A stretch of 64,000 bases of DNA, from NCBI GenBank assembly GCA_036172245.1, contig JAYWIR010000019.1:2728001-2792000 (forward strand). Direction: 5' to 3'. A program made the translations under genes and the position numbers. Shown piece after piece: positions 1-52,506 of the stretch. The notes beneath the pieces are model-generated. The model was not told where the DNA came from, did not search any database, and was given only the letters and a program-made list of their open reading frames with translations. Position 1 is the first letter of the stretch. Every line of letters begins with the position of its first letter. The DNA comes from Raillietiella orientalis (lineage: Eukaryota).

Positions 1-464
1 TTACAAGCGCATTCAAATAATACTTTAGTTACAATGACTTCTAAACGATTTCCGGTTCATCAAAACATATTCTCAGTTTTGCCATTATCATGGAAATACT
101 TGTGATAAAGAAATTTCAAGAAATGCCTCGATTTATTCCATAATTTTTCTGTATGCCATACGTATGGATGATGTAAACTCGTTATCCGTATGTAAGATTC
201 TTGTGAATAAATATCTTATTATTCATCGTGTTTATTGTGGGGAACAATAAAAAACGTTTCCATTTTTCTAGGACTAAAAAAAGTCTCTTCATGTTTGAAG
301 CCACAATTTGAAGTGGTTCTTATGTAATTTATGCTACTGGTATGCATCAAAAATATACAGAAATACATAGATTCCAATTATTTATAGTCTTAAAGGTGGA
401 AAAGGTGAATCAGCTTGTTTCCATGACAATTTGGAATAAGGTGCTGCTAAAGTTTATTTGAAAA

Positions 465-3400
465 ATGCCCAAGAAGAGTTCAGACAATGTGAACAACAAG
501 ATCCCTAAGCGGAATAACAATAATAATAAACATAAGTTGCCAGTTCCCCTTCCAAATGGTTTAATATTAACGGATATTACTAAACGGCAATGGAAGTTAG
601 GAAAAAGCATAGGTGTTGGGGGATTTGGCGAGATTTATTTAGTAACGGACAATGTGTCGACTGTTGTAGGTGCTGATGCCCCATTTGTTGTAAAAATTGT
701 GAGTACCTGATTTTTTCATTACCTGGATGGGGCTAATGTTTATCATACGGTAACTTGAAAAATTTGGCTCACATTTATGAACGGTTGCCAATTATCAGTA
801 TATGGTTACTGTATATTGTTCTGTACTGAGCTTTTATTTTTGCAAGTCCTTTGTCAGGAGTTATATAAATTGTACATTTAAATTAGGATTTTGAATACCT
901 AGCGGAATGCATAGTATTTTTGTTTGGATATCTGTCTTTCAAGAAGACCCATCACAACTTGAAAAATATTAGAAAATGTATTACCAGAGCACACAGTGAA
1001 TAAAGTAATAGTAGTGAATTTGCAGTTTGTATTCCATAAATCAAGTTCATGTATCAGTTTGAGGTTTTTATCATCAATAAGTTCACAGCTTCTGTAGGAT
1101 TCAGCATTTATGTTTCAGTCTCTTCTTAATCTTTGGAGGGATTATCAATCCAAGAATGTAACTTCAGAAATTTGGACTTCCTCATAAAGAGTACTTCTGT
1201 TGAAGAGGAAAAACTGCTAATGATATTTCAATTCATTATAACTACAGAAATTAATGCAGCGTTTTAAATGCTACATTTTACATGTATTAGCAAATAATAT
1301 GCATCCATAAGAAGTTGTACAAATGGCTTATTGAAACTTGAGGTGAAGGCATGTCCTGGAAGGTTGAATTCAGTCATGCCAGTGCCAAATGGTGCAATAA
1401 ATTTCAGAATACACATATACTTTGAAAAAGAGCAAAAAGCAGTTATACATCCATGATAGTTCCACTGTTTGTTTCATAATGAAAGGCATGTGTGTAGAGA
1501 TTCTGATCGTACCTATCTGATCTTGACAATCTTCTTGGTCAGTGAAACATAGCATCTCTCAGACAAATGAGTTCTGGAATCCTAAAGCATATCGAAAATC
1601 TTGTTTGCTAGAAGTAAATTTCCTGCAAAAATATTCAAAAAAGAATGAAGTATTTCTGTTGATGTCTATAGGGAAATATTGCAATGCATTCAATAATTCT
1701 AACTGCTGGGAAACTCTCTAGAGTGTAGCATTGAGTAGTTACTTAAAGGCAATTTAATAACAACAAGAAACAGTTAAGCACATTCAGTCAAAGCATCAAC
1801 TCTTTAAAATAAATAGATCGAAGTATATTGTTTAAGCTTTTAAAATTTTTAGGGTTATTTCAAGAACACTGCACCTTGTTTGCATGGTATTATTTTCCAA
1901 ATACTGTTTACAAAGGGTTTGTAAGGTGAACTTACTGTTCTTCATGTTTTTATTCTTTCATGTCTGCGGACATTTTCTGTTGAAAACCCATAAAGATTGT
2001 GTAAAATCTTATTCACTTGTACTGTATAAGTGGCATCCTGCTTTCATTTTGTGATGGGAAGAAATACTGATTTCCATTCATCGATTTTCATTTTCCAAAA
2101 GTAACTAATTGCCACAAGTTTGATTGTGTAGGAATGTGGATGAACATGCCTGAAGACAGAGTTGAGTATCTCCAGATAATCAACCAGAAACAAAATATTA
2201 ATGGATAGTTTTAAAAATTTTAAGGAGAGCTTAAGTAAATCTGTGTGTGTCTCTAGTTTCAATAGAGCAGTTTATCAGAGAAATGATTAAACCATTTTTC
2301 TTTAATTAATAGATGAAAAAAACAATTGTTCTTTGGTCAAAATTAATATGAACTAAGAGGCATTTTTTTAGTAATGTGACATGCATTTTTGTAAGGTGCA
2401 TAAGTCATTGTTTAGTAAATACCCATAACCTACAAAAAGTAAGCAATTCTTGCTAAATTTTGGAGATCATTCTGTTTAAAGACGAAAGTTACTGAACTGT
2501 TATAGTAGCAGTTCCAAACAAGGTGTCTCTTAATGTTTGCACTGATTCAATTAATGAAAGGTGCTCTGTTTTACAAGTAATTATGAATTTTGAATGCTGT
2601 TTTATTTGTAAACTTTTTATATAAATGATCTACTTACAGTCAAGACAAAGTAAACAGTGATTGCAATAATTGACTTCTAAGCATCATTGATGTAGAAATC
2701 ATTTCATAATCATCTCGATTTTTTTGTGCATCCTGTTGAAAATTGTTTATGCTATTTATTCCATTGATCAATGGAATGTGGGTAACCAAGTATTTTCTGC
2801 TATGTTTATCATCATTGTATTAAAGATAACAAAATCTTTGTATTTTCCAACATATGTGCATGTCATAAGTAGATAATTAAAATATTGATTAGTAAGAAAA
2901 GATGTTTGATTAGTTTGCATGGCAAGAATAACTTAAAATTATGAAGTGCATCATAATTAATTGAATATATTCCGGGAAAGTTACGATCATTCATAAGCTG
3001 CTGAGTGAAATTGGTAGCAAATGTAGAAATTTGGTGGACTCAGAATTGAAATTTTAATGACCTGTAAGAAAATTTCCTAAAAACTGATCCATTAAAACTC
3101 ATTTTCATGTGTGAAGTCATCTGTGATATTAGACTTGAAAGTCTGTTCCAGGGCAGTTCAGTAATGTTTAGAACAATTTGTTTCTAAGGGAATTCAAATG
3201 TGTGTAAATTTCAAGACAATATGAATCACAATTCAATTCAGTTAACTGATAATTATTTTAAGGAATTTATAAAAATTATTTAATAGTTCTGTAATCCAAA
3301 CACTGGTTTCAATTTTTGTGTAAAATCTTTATTTCTTAGCTTGCATTAAAAGTATATTGTAGTTTTTTTGAAGGCTCGTTTTTTATGTGAGTACTTATGA

Positions 3401-5598
3401 AAAGCAAAAGTTTTTTGGATATTGGTATCAATATTGGATGTTCTAGTTTTTTATTCTCTTCATTTGTAGTTCATTCAATAGTCAATTTGTAAAATTAATT
3501 TGTCTAAATATAAAACTAATGTCCTGGACTTCATTAATGCTTTTTCTGTTTGGCTAGTAATTTTGAAGTCATGATCATGATATGCATTCATTTGCAGTTT
3601 TGCATATCCATTATGTGCAGGCCAAAATTCCTAGATGCTAAAATAAGAGACAAGATTCATATTACTAAAATGCCAAAATTTTTGCCATAAATTTGATAGT
3701 ATATGAAGTGAAGTATAAGAAGTGTATTTCAGTGAAAAACACACTCTTGGTTTTTTTGATTCCTCATATCCAATACCTATTGCAATGGCATGGAATTATC
3801 ATGTTTATAAAAGTTTTCTCTAAAGCCGTAGTACATAAGAATTTCTGTTCTGCATTCTTTGATTATATGAATGTAAGCATTGTTTCAGGAACCACATAGC
3901 AATGGACCTTTGTTTGCTGAAATACATTGCTTGTGCAGAATTGGAAAGCCTGAAAGCAGTGAGTGTGGCATGCTAATTTTTTTTTAAAAAAAAAAAAAAA
4001 AACACGATTTTTAGTTCAGCAATGGAAAAAAGATCGTAAATTAACCAATTTTGGAATGCCTGCTTTAATTGGTTCAGGCTCAGTGTGGTATCAAGGAGAA
4101 AAATACAGATTCATGGTAATGGAACGCTATGGTGAGGATTTGCACAAAGTATTTGAGAGCAAAGGCAAAATTCTGTCTGTGCAGATGGTGTTTAATGTTG
4201 GCATTAAAGTGGTATGTAAATTATATTTGCCATTCATGTGCTGATGTAGTCTTTTTATTTAGTTGCATGTACTTGAGTATATACATTCCCATGGGTATAT
4301 TCATGCAGATATAAAGGGTTCGAATCTGCTGTTAGGATGGGGAAAAGGTCGAGAAAATGAGGTTTATTTAATAGATTTTGGCCTAGCCTGTCGTTATGAA
4401 AGCCAGGGCTCACACAAAGAATATGTACCTGACATTCGTTTTGCACATGATGGTACAATTGAATATACATCTAGGGATGCGCACATAGGAGGTACGTAGG
4501 AAAACCAGGTTCTCACATAACGACATCTATTAAGCTCATTCCCGCCGAGGGGACCTGGAAATCCTGGGTTACAACATGCTTCATTGGTTGCATGGCCACT
4601 TACCTTGGGAAGTGTATTTGCAAGAGCCAGAAAAAGTGCATGCATGCAAGAAAGACTTCATGGAAAATGTTTCACATTCCCTCAAACAGTTGTTTGGAAC
4701 TAAACCACCTGCAGGAGCCTCTGTTTTAGAAACCTTCTTGCAATATGTGAAAGAATTGAATTTTAAATCTCAACCAGATTATAAATGGCTCTGTCAGTTA
4801 CTTCAAAATGGTCTCAAAAAAGAAAAGTGCATCATAGGGCCTCTGCTGGTATCAAAGGCAAGGAACACAACCTCATCAGCATGTTATTACGTATTTCATA
4901 GAGTGTGCGTAAGAAAAGAAAATCTACTGAAGAAGCCGAAAATTTCCATGGGACTGCTAAGTTAGCACGAACTTCTCCTCGTTCAAGAAGACCTTTGAAA
5001 AGTGTCAGGTAGCATTGCCTGAATTAAGCTATTGTTAGTTGTTTTATAGGAATGTGCATTGTACTCCATCACCTCCACAGAAGCCTAAAACAGAGAAAAG
5101 TGAAACCCTTACACCTGCCATGCTGGAAGTTATAAAAAAGAAAAACTCGCCAGCTGTACCAGATTCTTATCGCCATTCCAAGATACCCCCTATAAGGTGG
5201 AATTTCTCTCCCTTCCCTTCCCAAATATAAAATGGTCTTTCAGCCCATCAGTGTCAAAAGCCAACATTCTCACACCTGCCATGCAGCTTGTTTTGCAGAT
5301 GTGTCAGAGGCAAGAGGCTAGTTCAAAATCTGTATTGGACGACAAGAAACAAGAAGCAGTGTTTTTGAAAAAAAGTGTCCAAATGGTGAAGCGCAAGTAT
5401 TCGAGGAAGAACATTCAGCATTGTGGTAAGTTGCATGTTATCACCACTATTCTTTTTTTTATCTCTATAGCAGCTGTTCAACCTGTTATTGCACCTAAAC
5501 GACAGTCACGTCAATCTGCAAGCACACAAACATCACCAGGATTGAGGCCAAGACCTGTCAGAAAAGCAAGTCGTCGGTTTAGTCCAGAGCTTTTCTGA
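465..5598 (+). CDS. VRK1: Vaccinia-related kinase (VRK1 / NHK-1 / ballchen-like Ser/Thr kinase), 9 exons, ~535 aa
   Basis: Manually spliced exons 465-698, 3889-3958, 4015-4211, 4263-4491, 4535-4848, 4902-5008, 5050-5196, 5244-5425, 5471-5598. All introns are GT..AG with consistent phases; total 1608 nt. Motifs: [76 protein letters not shown], all typical of the VRK family. Exons 6-9 (low-complexity tail) are less certain. Confidence 0.93.
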
Positions 5599-5623
5599 AT
5601 CCATGCTCTACCTCATTGTTTCC

Positions 5624-5629
5624 TTTATT
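5624..5629 (-). terminator. Putative poly(A) signal (AATAAA, minus strand) of the K2P channel gene
   Basis: TTTATT on the + strand, about 70 nt downstream of the channel stop codon (5699-5701). Confidence 0.55.
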
Positions 5630-5647
5630 TGACTTTACTCTTTAAGT

Positions 5648-5653
5648 AATAAA
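5648..5653 (+). terminator. Putative poly(A) signal (AATAAA) of the VRK gene
   Basis: AATAAA 50 nt after the VRK stop codon. Confidence 0.6.
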
Positions 5654-5698
5654 ATGAGAACCAAAATTTTGAGCTGAAGATCACTTTGAATGTGACAG

Positions 5699-11734
<6,036 letters not shown>

Positions 11735-14819: not shown

Positions 14820-15161
14820 CCCCTCCTGCTACTGCTACTACTAACACCATAACTACTGCACTATTGCTACCATTATTATTGCTACTACTACTACTCTCTT
14901 TCTTCCTCCTCCTCCTGCTACCATCACTACCACTACCATCACTACGACTATCACCACTACTACTATCACCACTACCAGTACTACCATTGCTACTACTATC
15001 ATTACTACTTTCTTTCCTTCTCTTTCTCCTCCTCTTACCATCACTACCACTACCATCACTACGACTAACACCACCACTACCACTACCACCATCACCACTA
15101 CCACTACTACTTTTTTTCTTTCTCCTTCTACTACTACCATCACTACCACTACCACTGTCAT

Positions 15162-15193
<32 letters not shown>

Positions 15194-16769: not shown

Positions 16770-17530
16770 GCAGTAGTAGCAGCAGTAGTAGTACTCCTAC
16801 TAGTAGCAGAAGCAGAAGTTTTACTGCTGTTACCACGACTAGTAGTAATACTAGTAATAGAAGTAGTAGTACTTCTTGTACTGCTAGTAGAGTAGTAGTA
16901 GTAGTAGTAGTAGCAGTAGCAGAAGGAGTAGGAGTTGTAATAGCGGTGGTGGTGGTGGTAGTAGTAGTAATAAGAGTGAAGGAAGAGAAAATAATAATAA
17001 TTAGTAGTATTAGTAGTACTACTATTAGTATATTCGTAGCAGCAGCAGAAGTACTAATAGCACTGGTAGTAGCGGTGGCAGTGGTGGTGGTGAAAGTAGT
17101 AGTAGAAGTAGTAAGAGTAGGAAAGTAGTAGTAGTAGCAGCAACAGTCATAGGCTTAGTAGTAATAATAGTAGTGCGGTTACTAGATACTACTATTAGTA
17201 ATAGTATTAACAGCATTAGCACTACTACCATTACTAGTAGCAGTTACTAATGCTACTACTAGCACTTTAGTATCAGTTAATGTTATCGCTACAACAGCTA
17301 CTACTCCTAGCACTAGTAGTGGCATTAATAGTGCTTTTACTACTATTAGCAGTAATAATAGCAGCAGTAGTAGTAGCATTAGAAGTAGTAGTGGTAATAG
17401 CGGTGGTGGTGGTAGTACTAGTAGTGAAAGGAGGAAAGAAAGGAAGAAAGAATTATTATTATTAGTAGTAGTAATAGAAAAGTAGTGGTAGTAGTAAGAG
17501 GAGGAAGAGACGGAAGGAAAGGAGGAGGAA
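16770..17530 (+). repeat. Cryptic (TAG/GTA)n simple repeat
   Basis: Long degenerate agtagtagt / agcagt / ggtggt tract with a short internal (CTA) patch; AT-rich island in a GC-rich background. Confidence 0.9.
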
Positions 17531-28697: not shown

Positions 28698-31089
28698 GTA
28701 AAGAGAGAGGAGGAGGAGGGGCGCGAGCTCAGCTAGTCGAAGGCAGCACTTATCGACGCTCCTACCAGGGGAGCGCACGGGACCCGCCGATTTGCCCCGG
28801 TCGCTTCTGTCCGCTTTCCAGGACGTCCCCGGGAGCGGAGGCGGCGGTCCTCCAGGATTGTCTCCTACCCCTCCAGGGATTCACTGGTCGGGGGGCGCGC
28901 CCTTTTCTCGCGGTGTCCCCACTAGGGCACGGCTGTGTCCCAAAGTGGGAAGATCGAGGTGCATTGCCAGGGGAGGACGTGTGGCTGAAAGGAGCACGGG
29001 AAGGACGTCGCAGGACGAGGTGCTCCCCACCTCTCCCTCTTCCCGTGCATCCCTTCGAAAGCACGATCGTCAGCTCCTCCCGTGCCTGGAGTCCGCGGGA
29101 AGTCCCACAGGAAGATGGGAACCGATCAGGACTGGCGAGCGTGCAGTTTCCTCCACTAGTTGCTTCCCCTTGTTGCCTAGCAACCCGCAGCTTCTCGCCG
29201 TAGTACCTCCCGGAAGCGCGCTGGCTCACCAGGAGGAGCTCGGGTAAGGCTATCCCTGCAGGAGGCCGGAAGGCCTGTTAGGAAGTATCCCTACTCCACT
29301 CGTCGGATGTGCCGCTGAAGGCAGCTCAGTACCATCGCGAGCGCTTGCGAGCTGACCCACTCGTCTTCCCAAAAGGAAAGCGCTGATCTCCTAAGCTTCC
29401 TCCTGTCCGCGACGAGTTTCCAGAATTCTTCACCACCACCGCGACTCACCGACGGTTTTAGGGGAATTCGAAAACCGAGGTCTCCCGTCCTCCTCCTATT
29501 CCTTTCTCCTTGTTTTCCATTCCATCGTCATTTCTTTGTTCCTCCTCTTCCTCCTACATTTCTCTCGTTCTCTCTTGCTTCTCCTCCCGTTTCCCCTGCT
29601 ATATGAGCCAGCGTGGGGTGTGGGAGAAGGTAGCGACGCTGTTACGTGGTGCTCCGCGAGCGGTTGGTGAAAGCAAATGGCAGCCTCATGCCAACAGTGA
29701 GGGTTCATAGTGTGAAGCTGCTGCAGGTCATGGTCCAGTATCCGTTGGCCCGAGCCTTCCCAACTTTTGGTGCGAGGAAATAGGTAGTGGATAGGATGGG
29801 GCGAAGAGGAAGCTGTTTGTCTGTCCCCTCGCTGGTCATCTCTCCCGTAGCATCCATGAACGTGGGCCTTCTCCAGGCGAAAGACAGCCTTTCCTCCCGC
29901 TGGAGATCCTTCAGTTGCTACCCTTCACCTGTTCTGATGTTTAGCTCCACGTTGGGCTGGAAAGTTTCCTGCGCAAAGAGGGCGACTCCCTCCTCTTTCC
30001 TCTCGCGCCGCCGGTACCGCGGATCCGCGTTTTCAGCTGCCTCCGGTCCCTCCTGGTGAGACTCCCAGGACCTTCCACACCGCAGCTCTGGCTTCGAACC
30101 GAAGGGATCCAACTTGTGGACGCGCCCCAGTGGTCTCTTCTGCCACGTTTCTGGTTCAGACGCTGTTTCCTTCCTCCACATTCTGCTGTGAGAGTCCCGA
30201 GTATCACGCCTCGAACCGGACCAGGAGCGGCTTTCCCGTAGGAGAGGTCGTCACGAGTCTGTCACCATATTCTACCGGTCCAGGGGCGATATGGATGCGG
30301 GCGCAGCATCTCTAGGATGGCAGGGAGGAAGGAAGAGGGAATTCAGGGCTGATGTCCTCCTTTCATTCGGGAAGTCGGTTCCTTCAGGGGTGTTGGAAAG
30401 TCTTTTCCCGGATGGCACAGGAAATTTCTGGTCGCGGCTCACCCATGGTTGCTCCCCCCCCAAATCACTCCTTCCTTCTTCCCTGAAAGCATCGAGATTC
30501 GCCGTAGCATACGGGGATCATGTCCCTCTTTCCCCGCATGCGACGGGACGGAGGGCCGGGATGTCAGAGCGCGTCAGCGAGAGTCGGGGAGGAGCGAAGG
30601 TGGAGAACCGAACGCTCCTGCTGCAACAGTCTGCGACTCGTCCTGGAGCTGGGAGCGACCGGAGAGGCCCTGCGATAGCACATCGCGGTGTTCCCTCCGA
30701 GAAGGGACGACAGTGCACGAACCACTTAAATCTTTCCGGCTGTGTGCGTCACGGTGGCCGGTCAGGCCACTCCCCGTCCTAAGTCAGTTCTCTGACCAAC
30801 ACAGGTGGCCGACGAAGGGATGTTAGTCCTTGCAAGCCGTACCTGAGCACCTCCAGACCCGAGAGATCTTAACCCGAACCGAAGGGAAGCCGCAGGTAGT
30901 TTTTCGGTTGAGGTCTCGGGTCTGCTGAGGTCCAGGGATCATGGCGCTGTCGAGCGGGAAAAAGAAATCTTAGGTAACCACCGCAGAAGCCTCTCTTCCT
31001 GTGGGGGATCAGTTGGGCGTTTAAGTGTGGACGTGCGCCTCTCGCTGCAGCTGAGAAACCCCGACCTTTCCCGATTTCTGGTTCAGCAC

Positions 31090-31425
31090 GTCAGGGAGAG
31101 GTCAGGCAAACGTCCCAGGTGTCCCAATCACTCTGGACGCCGCGGTAGAAGGTTCGACCAGCGCCACGTCTGGGAATTCGCTGTTAGAGACCCTTTAGAC
31201 ACCGCGGTGTTCCGTGGGAAACGTTCCCGACTCTCTCGGCAGTACGGTGTTTCACGGAAGACCTACTCGACCCTCTCGGCGGGTGTGCGCTGCGAGACGC
31301 GTGGATGCTAGGGTGTGGCTCGGGTGAGCCGCTAACGCATCTCTCTCTCCCTTCCCTTCAGACTCGAGAATCCCGCAGGAAAGTAAGAACCGCCAGTGAG
31401 AATGGTGTCTCTGTTTTCCCCTTCC
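31090..31425. repeat. Direct repeat copy 1 (~340 bp; putative pseudo-LTR)
   Basis: Collinear with 32710-33100 (gagaggtcagg.aaacgtcccaggt, ctgggaattcgctgtt, gaccctctcggcgggtgt, gctaacgcatct, gcaggaaagt). Confidence 0.85.
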
Positions 31426-33008
31426 GTGGGAGTCATCAGCGCCGACGAAGGCGCCATTAGCCCACATAGCGCCCGCACTTTCGTGCATTATGTTCCAGTG
31501 TTCTGCATGACTCTTTCCCGCCGTGTGATCCCCACCTTTCGCAAAGATCTCGCGTCTGTCTCGATCCTGGTCTCGTTTCCATGGAATGGACCAGCAGTCG
31601 TCAGTGGTTTCCTCTGGGATTCCCGGCAGCCTCCGAGCAACAAAGGCTGCCTTTCGAGGGGGATCCGGGCTAGGTGGTCCCAGGACTCAACTCCGTGCGA
31701 GAAGTCCGGGCCGAGCGTGCTACTCCTGCAAGCCAGCGCCAGGTTTTCCCCGCGGTAGAGGACCGGCAGCTGCAGTATTCACCCCGGCATCTACCAGGCA
31801 ACAACGCTGGGATTTCCCCCTTCTCTCCCCTTCCTCCCGCCATCTCCCAGAAATCACTCCGAAGGGGCTTCCTCGAATTCCAGGGAACCTCCTGAAGCGC
31901 GCGCTCATTCCAGAAAGTTCCTCGCTACCGCCGGCTCGCTCCCTGCCGACGATGGCCGAAACAGGCGACCGCCTCAGCTCGCTCGCAAGAGCGGCCGGAG
32001 GCAGGCCGCGCGGGTGCCTCGCGTGGAGACCCGCGAAAAGACCCATCAGTCGGAAATTGATGCTGTTTTCGTGCCCAATGGGCAGCTGGAGCTCGATACC
32101 CGGTAATCACTTTCTGATGAGGTCAAGCGATCCGAGGTCCTCCCACCGAGATGGGCGGATGCCTCGCCCCTTGCAAGAACCGGTGGACTCCACGCCCGGC
32201 GCGCTTGCCACAGCCGGCAGCACCTGCATCTGAGCGATCGGTCCGAACGGAAGGCGGCAGCAGCAGCAGCGATTCAGAGGCAGTGCGCAGCTCCGCTGCA
32301 AGCGGTCAGCGCAGGACTACGACGCGTGCGGTCCCGGCAGCACCCGGGAGTGCGCGTGCCATGAAGATTTCGTGCTTTTCTTCCCGTCCGACTTGGTTCC
32401 TCATCTCTCTCGCGCGCGCCACACCCACGCTTCCCTGGGACGGACTTCGTTTTAATGACTCTCGAAATCCCCTTAAGAATTTTCCTCTTTTCCATCCCCG
32501 TCTCCCCCCTCCCTCCCGTCTCTCCCGAGGAAAGAGGTAGCTGGGAATTTCCTGTTTCGGAGCCGCCCATGGCTCGGCGCCTCCAAGTGCCGTGCCGAAC
32601 TCGAAAGGCAGCGATGCTCTTTTTTATTTTTATTTTTTATCTCGGCCAGCTTTCCCGAACCGACTGAGGTCGTACCCGAAACGAGCGCCGCGAATTCCGT
32701 GGTCCATTTCCGGAGAGAGGTCAGGGAAACGTCCCAGGTCTCTCGAGCGGTTACACCGCCGCAGATGTGTGACCGGCGCCATGCTGGGAATTCGCTGTTC
32801 GAGTTCGCCTCTCGGCGACCCGGTGTTACTCGGAAGAGGTTCCCAACCCTCTAGACAAGGCGGTGTTCCTCGCAGGAGGTTCCCGACCCTCTCGGCGGGT
32901 GTATGCTGTACGCGTGGATGCTCGAGTGTAGCTCGCTAACGCATCTATCTCTCCCCTCTCCCTTTAGACGCGAGAATTCCGCAGGAAAGTGAGAATCATC
33001 AGTGATAC

Positions 33009-33028
33009 ACTACACTTTGATCTTAGCC
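33009..33028 (-). pseudogene. U2: Inverted U2 snRNA fragment (approx. nt 19-38)
   Basis: The reverse complement reads ggctaagatcaaagtgtagt. Confidence 0.85.
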
Positions 33029-33030
33029 CA

Positions 33031-33068
33031 ATCGCTTCTCGGCCTTTTGACTAAGATCAAAGTGCAGT
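33031..33068 (+). pseudogene. U2: 3'-truncated U2 snRNA fragment (nt 1-~38)
   Basis: atcgcttctcggccttttgactaagatcaaagtgcagt matches the U2 5' end (AUCGCUUCUCGGCCUUUUGGCUAAGAUCAAAGUGUAGU) with 2 mismatches; the rest of U2 (stem II, Sm site) is absent. Confidence 0.9.
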
Positions 33069-34367
33069 CAGTGAGAACGCTGCGTTTGTTTTCCCCTTCC
33101 CCGGAGCGAACCTCCTCTTTTGCCGGGCGAGTTGTCCCTTCCCGTGTGGTTCGGGCAGAAGACAGCAGTGCAACCCACCGCTACCTCCTGGAGTCCCTCC
33201 CTCCCTTTTTTTTTTTTTTTTTTGCTTCTTCTCCTGAACGGTAGCGGACGGGCAGGGAGGATGAGGCGGTTGTGCGGACCGAAGTGTGCCGCGGAGTGAA
33301 AGCAGCAGGGAACTCGGGGCGCGGCGGATGACGCGCAAACCGCAAAGGTGCGAGGCAAAGTCCGAGGAAGATTTTCCAGGCGACGAACTTCTCCGCTTGC
33401 CCGCCGCTTCCACGGGACGACTGCCTCCTTGTTCCTCTCCCTCCTCCCTTGCGAGAGTCTGGGGGGGGGCACCTGAATGTGAAAATCGCGTCCGCGGGTG
33501 GCCCCCAGCTCGAAACGAGCGACAGCGACGCTCTTCCTGTAGGTTTGAAGTGTTTACATAGGGCTCTCGCCTTCCGCGAACTCCCGAACGCCATTGACGC
33601 TTGCACCGCCCGTTTGTTTTTCTTCCCGAATGATTGATACAGTACGCCGCCGAGGAGTGCTCTCAGAGTCCGCGAGGTCATTGGTGCTGTCCACTCCCAT
33701 GGCTTTTTAAGAGCCTCCGAGATGTTAAGAGGGCATGGAAAAACTCATCTGGGAAGATCAAGTGACCTTTGTCATCCGTGGCACGTAATGCTCCCAGGAC
33801 TACCCGAAAGGTCGTTCACTCGGCGGTAAAAATAACGCGTGCGGTGGTCGCGGATCGCACGTCGGTGGGGTCTCGGGCCGGCCCTTCGCTATTCCATGGC
33901 ACTGTTCCCCCCACCCTTCCTCCAAGTTCTCTACAGCAACCGGCCCTCTCTGACGGGAGTCTCCCTCTCCCGTTTGCATCGCGTCCCACTGAACCGAAGG
34001 CTGTCGAATCGCCCGGAGACCACGGACCACGGGTTCCTGCTTGAAATTCCTGCCTCGTGTCGCCAAGCGCTCCTGCATATTCGAGAACGTCACGGGTAAT
34101 TTGCGCACGGATTCATCTGGGTCGGCGGCATGGCGCAAGCGGTGCTGCCGCGACGATAAAATCGCCGGCGAGGCGCTTCGATATGCATCGAATGCATCCA
34201 CCGCGTGCGCTTCCTCCGTGGAAGCGTCCTTTTATCTTCAGTCGTGTGTCGTTTGAGCAATGTACACGGAAGTGCCGCGGCATGGAGACTGCATAAGTGG
34301 CTCGCATCTATAAATATATCTGTACAGTTTTTTTTTAATAGGGATTGTTATCATGCCCTTGTTGGAG

Positions 34368-52469: not shown

Positions 52470-52506
52470 ATCGCTTCTCGGCCTTTTGGCTAAGATCGAA
52501 GTGTAG
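52470..52506 (+). pseudogene. U2: 3'-truncated U2 snRNA fragment (nt 1-37)
   Basis: atcgcttctcggccttttggctaagatcgaagtgtag: starts at U2 +1 and ends within the GUAGUA branch-site recognition sequence. Confidence 0.92.

Follow-up and report, generated by a model that had tools for sequence, protein, structure and literature searches.

A 64,000-nt stretch of Raillietiella orientalis DNA (assembly GCA_036172245.1, contig JAYWIR010000019.1, positions 2,728,001 to 2,792,000), referred to here as the window, contains a 62-nt insert (33006-33067) made of two fragments of the U2 small nuclear RNA (snRNA) in head-to-head orientation and enclosed by two copies of the heptamer TCAGTGA. A paralogous copy of the host sequence (copy 1) has a single heptamer at the corresponding position and no insert; the insert-bearing sequence is called copy 2. 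The insert is a non-functional retro-insertion fossil and carries no sign of function. The origin that we favour, with about even chances of being correct, is a pair of tailless U2 retropseudogenes produced in one twin-priming event. The insert and its borders comprise the following parts:

32999-33005: left target-site duplication, TCAGTGA, 7 bp, continuous with the left flank that is homologous to copy 1
33006-33030, minus strand: antisense U2 arm, whose reverse complement corresponds to U2 from about nt 18 to nt 38/39
33031-33067, plus strand: sense U2 arm, nt 1-37, aligned to the Rfam U2 model from position 1
33068-33074: right target-site duplication, TCAGTGA, 7 bp, continuous with the right flank that is homologous to copy 1

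The heptamers and the 62 nt between them read as reported in the initial annotation, an earlier description of this DNA. The U2 origin, the orientation and the junction positions can be taken directly from the letters. The sense arm starts exactly at U2 nt 1 and aligns to positions 1 to ~38 of the Rfam U2 model (RF00004), running through the GUGUAG of the branch-point-recognition region. It scores 27.8 bits (E 0.012 in a search of 6 kb); a 37-nt fragment cannot be expected to reach the gathering score of 46. The arm ends at ...GTGCAG and differs from the other U2 pieces by two transitions. The antisense arm had been placed at about nt 19-38 and the sense arm at nt 1-37; the latter extent held, while the former was corrected to a start at nt 18 (or 17). 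The antisense arm falls short of U2 nt 1 (~nt 18), and beside the inner junction it has either one extra C or a T18-to-G mismatch. Its outer end, TACACTACAC, extends 2 nt beyond the U2 consensus prediction.

Both U2 segments lie inside one duplication pair, opposite in orientation and with the 3'-ward ends of the RNA facing outward. Only the sense arm has U2 nt 1-17 and only the antisense arm has T38 with extra bases, so that neither, as it stands, simply duplicates the other. The hairpin noted earlier, at a size of ~18 bp, is present, with its dimensions revised to 14 perfect pairs and 20/23 overall: the stretches 33009-33031 and 33046-33068 (23 nt each) are 87% complementary, with a perfect core of 14 bp. 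Folded as DNA, the 76 nt from 32999 to 33074 gave -16.2 kcal/mol (z = -5.0), which was equalled by none of 200 shuffles. The heptamers are direct repeats: both have a central G, where an inverted copy would have a central C. The target site reads ...ATCA/TCAGTGA/GAAC and does not correspond to the L1-type cleavage site (TT/AAAA). A possible overlap between target and U2 at either outer junction amounts to only 1-2 nt.

The empty paralogous site lies within a local repeat, of which the window has two copies:

31096-31425, plus strand: copy 1 of the ~330-bp local repeat, empty state
31393-31399, in copy 1: unoccupied site, a single CCAGTGA without insert
32715-33100, plus strand: copy 2 of the ~330-bp local repeat, insert-bearing

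Copy 1 is situated 1.6 kb upstream of copy 2. After removal of the insert and one heptamer, copy 2 was colinear with copy 1 across the single CCAGTGA, with 276 matches and 65 mismatches (81%), which bears out the empty state proposed earlier. Identity was 234/284 in the left flank and 21/26 in the first 26 nt of the right flank, where the homology fades after ~26-33 nt. Because the flanks are homologous to the empty paralogue, both heptamers of copy 2 represent the original target in direct orientation. The host repeat itself contains a 40-bp tandem repeat (2.2 copies) at 32808-32897, which is also found at 31192-31292; short pieces of the repeat recur at 30680 and 32541. An 18-T run is located at 33205-33223, ~130 nt downstream of the insert, and is absent from the aligned part of the paralogous copy.

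Chance was evaluated separately for the elements of the locus. The 14-mer CTAAGATCAAAGTG, allowing at most 2 mismatches, occurred three times against 0.25 expected, a count that none of 100 shuffles reached, and the 19-mer from the U2 start occurred twice against 0.04 expected. Of 20000 random 62-nt sites, 80 were flanked by an exact direct repeat of at least 7 nt. Neither the U2 match nor the duplication nor the paralogue comes anywhere near what chance would give.

One further U2 piece was detected in the window:

52470-52506, plus strand: lone U2 5' fragment, nt 1-37, 29.3 bits with the Rfam U2 model, from model position 1

This fragment is identical to the sense arm at 34 of 37 positions and ends in ...GTGTAG, at the same G as the sense arm. 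No direct repeat of at least 5 nt adjoins it that could represent a target duplication, and a pair of CCGGAAG motifs, 24 nt upstream and 5 nt downstream, was non-significant (matched at 2567 of 20000 random sites). An ungapped scan of the 64-kb window found no U2-like pieces beyond these three; a 22/37 match at 8749-8785 looks like chance. Likewise, an Rfam E-value scan of the window returned only the two U2 sense pieces, everything else being far below threshold. The fragments score 27.8 and 29.3 bits, and the window has no RF00004 match at the gathering threshold of 46, as a functional U2 gene with its Sm site and 3' stem-loops would give. Compared with the Rfam consensus, all three U2 pieces have one extra purine before GUGUAG, as does a U2 pair from a metagenome contig described below. 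We take this extra purine to be a feature of insect-type U2; a literature string search gave no confirmation.

All three pieces are cut at nearly the same place in U2, at nt 37 in the sense arm, nt 37 in the fragment at 52470 and nt ~38-39 in the antisense arm. In agreement with the initial annotation, both outer ends of the insert are thus in the single-stranded GUAGUA region: the Rfam structure line places the truncation points in the unpaired stretch after stem-loop I. No A run, as would be expected of an A tail, follows the truncated U2 ends of the insert arms or of the 52470 fragment.

In the origin that we favour, a staggered break in copy 2 would have left complementary, near-identical 7-nt 3' overhangs ending in ...TGA. 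Each 3' end would have annealed by 1-2 nt to the exposed GUAGUA of U2 (nt 34-39 in the numbering of this organism) and primed reverse transcription toward the 5' end of the RNA. The bottom-strand complementary DNA (cDNA) would have reached nt 1, and the top-strand cDNA would have halted at nt 18, in the loop of stem-loop I. Joining of the cDNA 3' ends with at most 1 nt of homology, followed by fill-in, would give the 7-bp duplication. The doubling TACAC-TACAC at the left end may reflect slippage on the GU/GUA repeats at initiation. As ~20 nt of U2 are present in both arms, the template would have been two U2 molecules or a single one copied twice. This order of events is a reconstruction, as is RNA rather than DNA as the template; candidate enzymes are the reverse transcriptase of a long interspersed nuclear element (LINE) and a repair polymerase. 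The anatomy fits the two-ended U2 priming suggested in the initial annotation, but the process is not a new mechanism. Twin priming is defined in a 2026 survey (PMC13174262) as two reverse-transcription reactions from opposite ends of a break, joined at resolution; since this definition matches, two-ended patching is twin priming with U2 as both templates.

For comparison, public metagenome contigs were scanned for an antisense U2 stem-loop-I segment with a U2 start at most 12 nt downstream. Three loci were retrieved, one of which, L003, was genuine; L001 and L002 were chance matches in non-U2 sequence.

74-109 of contig ERZ1740070 NODE-23381: L003, head-to-head U2 pair, reverse complement of nt 18-34 followed by nt 1-19

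At its inner junction, L003 has the complement of nt 18 directly before nt 1, as does the window insert but for the latter's extra C. L003 has a GC content of 40%, flanks that could not be aligned to those of the window insert, and a different loop sequence in stem-loop I, and was for these reasons treated as an independent event. It has no clear target duplication. If its sense arm ends at nt 19, the two arms are adjacent parts of U2, as expected from twin priming. Head-to-head U2 had no match in a collection of bacterial and archaeal genomes and none in a viral collection, an expected result for collections with so little eukaryotic DNA.

The initial annotation had named fold-back duplication as the competing explanation. 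Here, a single cDNA (the complement of nt 37-1) would have been primed from the right end only, copied back on itself after a strand switch (snap-back or fold-back) and joined on the left, the switch being made by the polymerase itself or by a repair polymerase such as Pol theta. The insert has traits that would suit such an origin: its two arms, 87% complementary, readily fold together, the heptamer is close enough to a palindrome for the snapped-back end to pair at 6/7 positions with the left overhang, and the identical inner junction of L003 could mean a stereotyped, structure-driven switch. We nevertheless consider it unlikely, if a serious alternative. For the copy to begin at the complement of nt 18, a lone T-A pair would have had to close the hairpin (by hand pairing), and the left heptamer abutting the arm should be inverted, with a central C, whereas a direct copy with a central G was found. 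Moreover, the left junction has four bases for which the right arm and flank offer no source, and a target duplication, which fold-back does not need, is present. The securely identified arms of L003 overlap by 2 nt only; we count this for two cDNAs, because fold-back cannot produce such arms. The arguments rest on few bases, and on them fold-back is disfavoured.

Somewhat less probable again is a capture by end joining, in which two ready-made double-stranded U2 cDNAs (nt 1-37 and nt 18-39) would have been ligated, without any priming from the break ends, into a filled-in 7-nt staggered break, possibly the excision site of a DNA transposon that makes 7-8-bp duplications. Duplication copies around a short palindromic filler resemble a transposon excision footprint, and the minimal junction homologies (0-2 nt) and the target, which is not LINE-like, are consistent with this route. 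Precedents are the capture of reverse-transcribed sequence at induced breaks in mouse zygotes (PMC4516963) and templated sequence insertion polymorphisms in human (PMC5110952). However, no transposon remnant is present, random ligation gives a head-to-head arrangement in only 1/4 of cases, and the route leaves unexplained that both outer ends are RNA 3'-ward and lie at an internal-priming hot spot. A miniature inverted-repeat DNA transposon (MITE) was rejected as the source, the arms being U2 from the exact nt 1; further copies of the insert, as a MITE would show, were not found in the window. It is very unlikely that the insert was ancestral to the local repeat and was lost from copy 1 by recombination between the heptamers. 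A substitution test did not significantly separate the ages of insert and duplication (P = 0.06-0.14), which leaves room for this history, but a precise deletion between 7-bp repeats would be needed, U2-derived sequence inside a target duplication is the hallmark of insertion, and the insert plus heptamers differ at ~3 of 76 nt, compared with 19% mismatch in the flanks. Least credible is a fold-back artefact of assembly or library preparation, or a chance resemblance. The insert junctions are known from the assembled sequence, which leaves some room for an artefact; an artefactual fold-back would be exact, however, and the arms differ in extent and at 3/23 positions. The significance tests above speak against a chance resemblance.

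Several observations weigh against twin priming of U2 on both ends. The arms share ~nt 18-37, while classical twin priming leaves only a small overlap, and the target is not of the L1 type (TTTT/A). Homology is limited to 1-2 nt between overhang and U2 and to at most 1 nt at the inner junction, and the left outer junction fits U2 only with a 2-nt surplus. A Pfam scan revealed no reverse-transcriptase domain in the 257 window open reading frames (ORFs) of at least 110 aa. The heptamer is nearly palindromic (6/7), so that the distinction between direct and inverted copies hangs on its central base. The age test is weak: an insert of the same age as the duplication should have ~6.1 substitutions, and 2-3 were counted. 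Finally, L003 after nt 19 still matches U2 at 9/18 positions in register (a value reached by 19 of 968 random offsets), and a colinear alignment of L003 with the window insert (56/72) spans the stretch beyond nt 19. If the sense arm of L003 is degenerate past nt 19, its arms do overlap and are no argument against fold-back.

The shared junction could also mean that head-to-head U2 pairs are a stereotyped product, formed for example by collision of two reverse transcriptases, in LINE-1-independent patching of breaks. In this scheme, the trailing reverse transcriptase would hit the first one, parked on the terminal RNA:cDNA duplex, and jump onto its cDNA. A constant stop 17 nt from the U2 5' end would be expected if two reverse transcriptases collided on the same U2, and three U2 5' pieces in 64 kb, a target that is not of the L1 type and an arthropod-like host would point to patching that is independent of LINE-1. 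We regard this scheme as improbable: the nt-18 junction has been seen in two cases, of which L003 was found with a pattern modelled on the window insert.

The window is free of N and has two compartments, with a GC content of 31-37% in the first 8 kb (1-8000) and 53-63% in 8001-64000. The shift is sharp, with an arthropod-like gene in the AT-rich part; either natural heterogeneity or a chimeric contig may account for it. One convincing coding feature and one weak candidate, both in the AT-rich part, were noted:

5702-6385, minus strand: exon of a two-pore-domain (K2P) potassium channel of the sup-9/TASK type, Pfam Ion_trans_2, E 1.5e-21
4534-4962, plus strand: ORF weakly similar to the ZSWIM1/3 helical domain, E 1.7e-4, 22 bits (cut-off 27.3)

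The closest relatives of the K2P exon were arthropod proteins (59-64% identity), with an ostracod protein as the top match. Among the 257 ORFs scanned, which ran from stop to stop, this exon was the only one above the Pfam cut-off; neither a transposase nor a reverse transcriptase was detected, and the ORFs of the GC-rich 56 kb had no recognisable protein domain. Matches below threshold were to ZSWIM and RPC4, and the ORF at 4534-4962 may be a transposase-derived remnant. The two longest ORFs of the GC-rich part have translations rich in R, G, P and S and are non-coding in look. Long imperfect trinucleotide arrays occupy 14889-15193 and 16840-17137; they consist of repeats of the CTA/CCA type and ~100 copies of TAG.

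The locus itself is a neutral fossil. Its value lies in being a clean natural example of both ends of a break extended on an snRNA, without LINE sequence, if the favoured origin is right, and it was found in a host other than the mammals and the lizard whose tailless retropseudogenes have been linked to relaxed L1 activity. Should many such U2 pieces with recurrent junctions exist genome-wide, they would bear on the arthropod enzymes that copy RNAs at breaks and on how twin-primed cDNAs are resolved.

Compared with functional U2 (RF00004), the sense arm retains the first 37 nt and lacks everything after the branch-point region. The closest counterparts of the single arms are tailless retropseudogenes. 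Noll et al. 2015 (PMC5322556) traced these to internal priming at unpaired segments of the RNA, over 2-18 nt complementary to the target, and listed U2 as a major source. In the supplement of that study, 88 of the 119 human U2 rows tallied, which are the first 119 of roughly 300 rows of the table, have lengths of 33-39 nt, with a mode of 35. The initial annotation had stated that U2 retropseudogenes tend to be 3'-truncated near this position, and these rows agree with it. As judged from the sequences and the tallied rows, the truncation point in the window is the human hot spot, allowing for the extra base of the host. The insert shares with these retropseudogenes a complete 5' end (in the sense arm), a cut in the single-stranded region at ~nt 33-39, the missing A tail and flanking duplications. 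In contrast, the known cases are described there as single copies at A/T-rich L1-type targets in therian mammals and a lizard, with duplications of 8-35 nt (the screening threshold), whereas the insert consists of two copies head to head with a G/C-containing duplication of 7 bp, in an arthropod-like host without evidence of L1.

The same internal-priming model was put forward by Doucet et al. 2015 (PMC4476161), whose Group III comprises 3'-truncated snRNA pseudogenes. They also described 30 human snRNA/retrotransposon chimeras, in 7 of which a 3'-truncated snRNA is inverted beside L1, an arrangement that they explained by twin priming on the top strand, and the 2026 survey invokes twin priming for antisense tRNA/L1 and 5S/L1 chimeras (PMC13174262). 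The window insert resembles these products in having opposite segments inside one duplication pair and an snRNA 3'-truncated in a loop. It differs in its partners: in the published products an L1 or Alu cDNA is joined to a second piece of its own kind or to a small RNA, and there is hardly any overlap of the segments, whereas here both partners are U2, LINE sequence is absent and ~20 nt are present in both arms. The cDNA captured at breaks (PMC4516963, PMC5110952) is similar in providing short cDNA-derived filler with little junction homology, but the sources described there are mRNAs, retrotransposons and distant genomic sites. A literature search found no paper on inverted U2/U2 pairs, although figures or supplementary tables may list cases. 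Single U2 5' fragments are ordinary in mammals and twin priming is established; the part for which the literature search gave no precedent is a homotypic U2/U2 head-to-head insert, lacking a LINE partner, in a non-mammalian and apparently arthropod genome.

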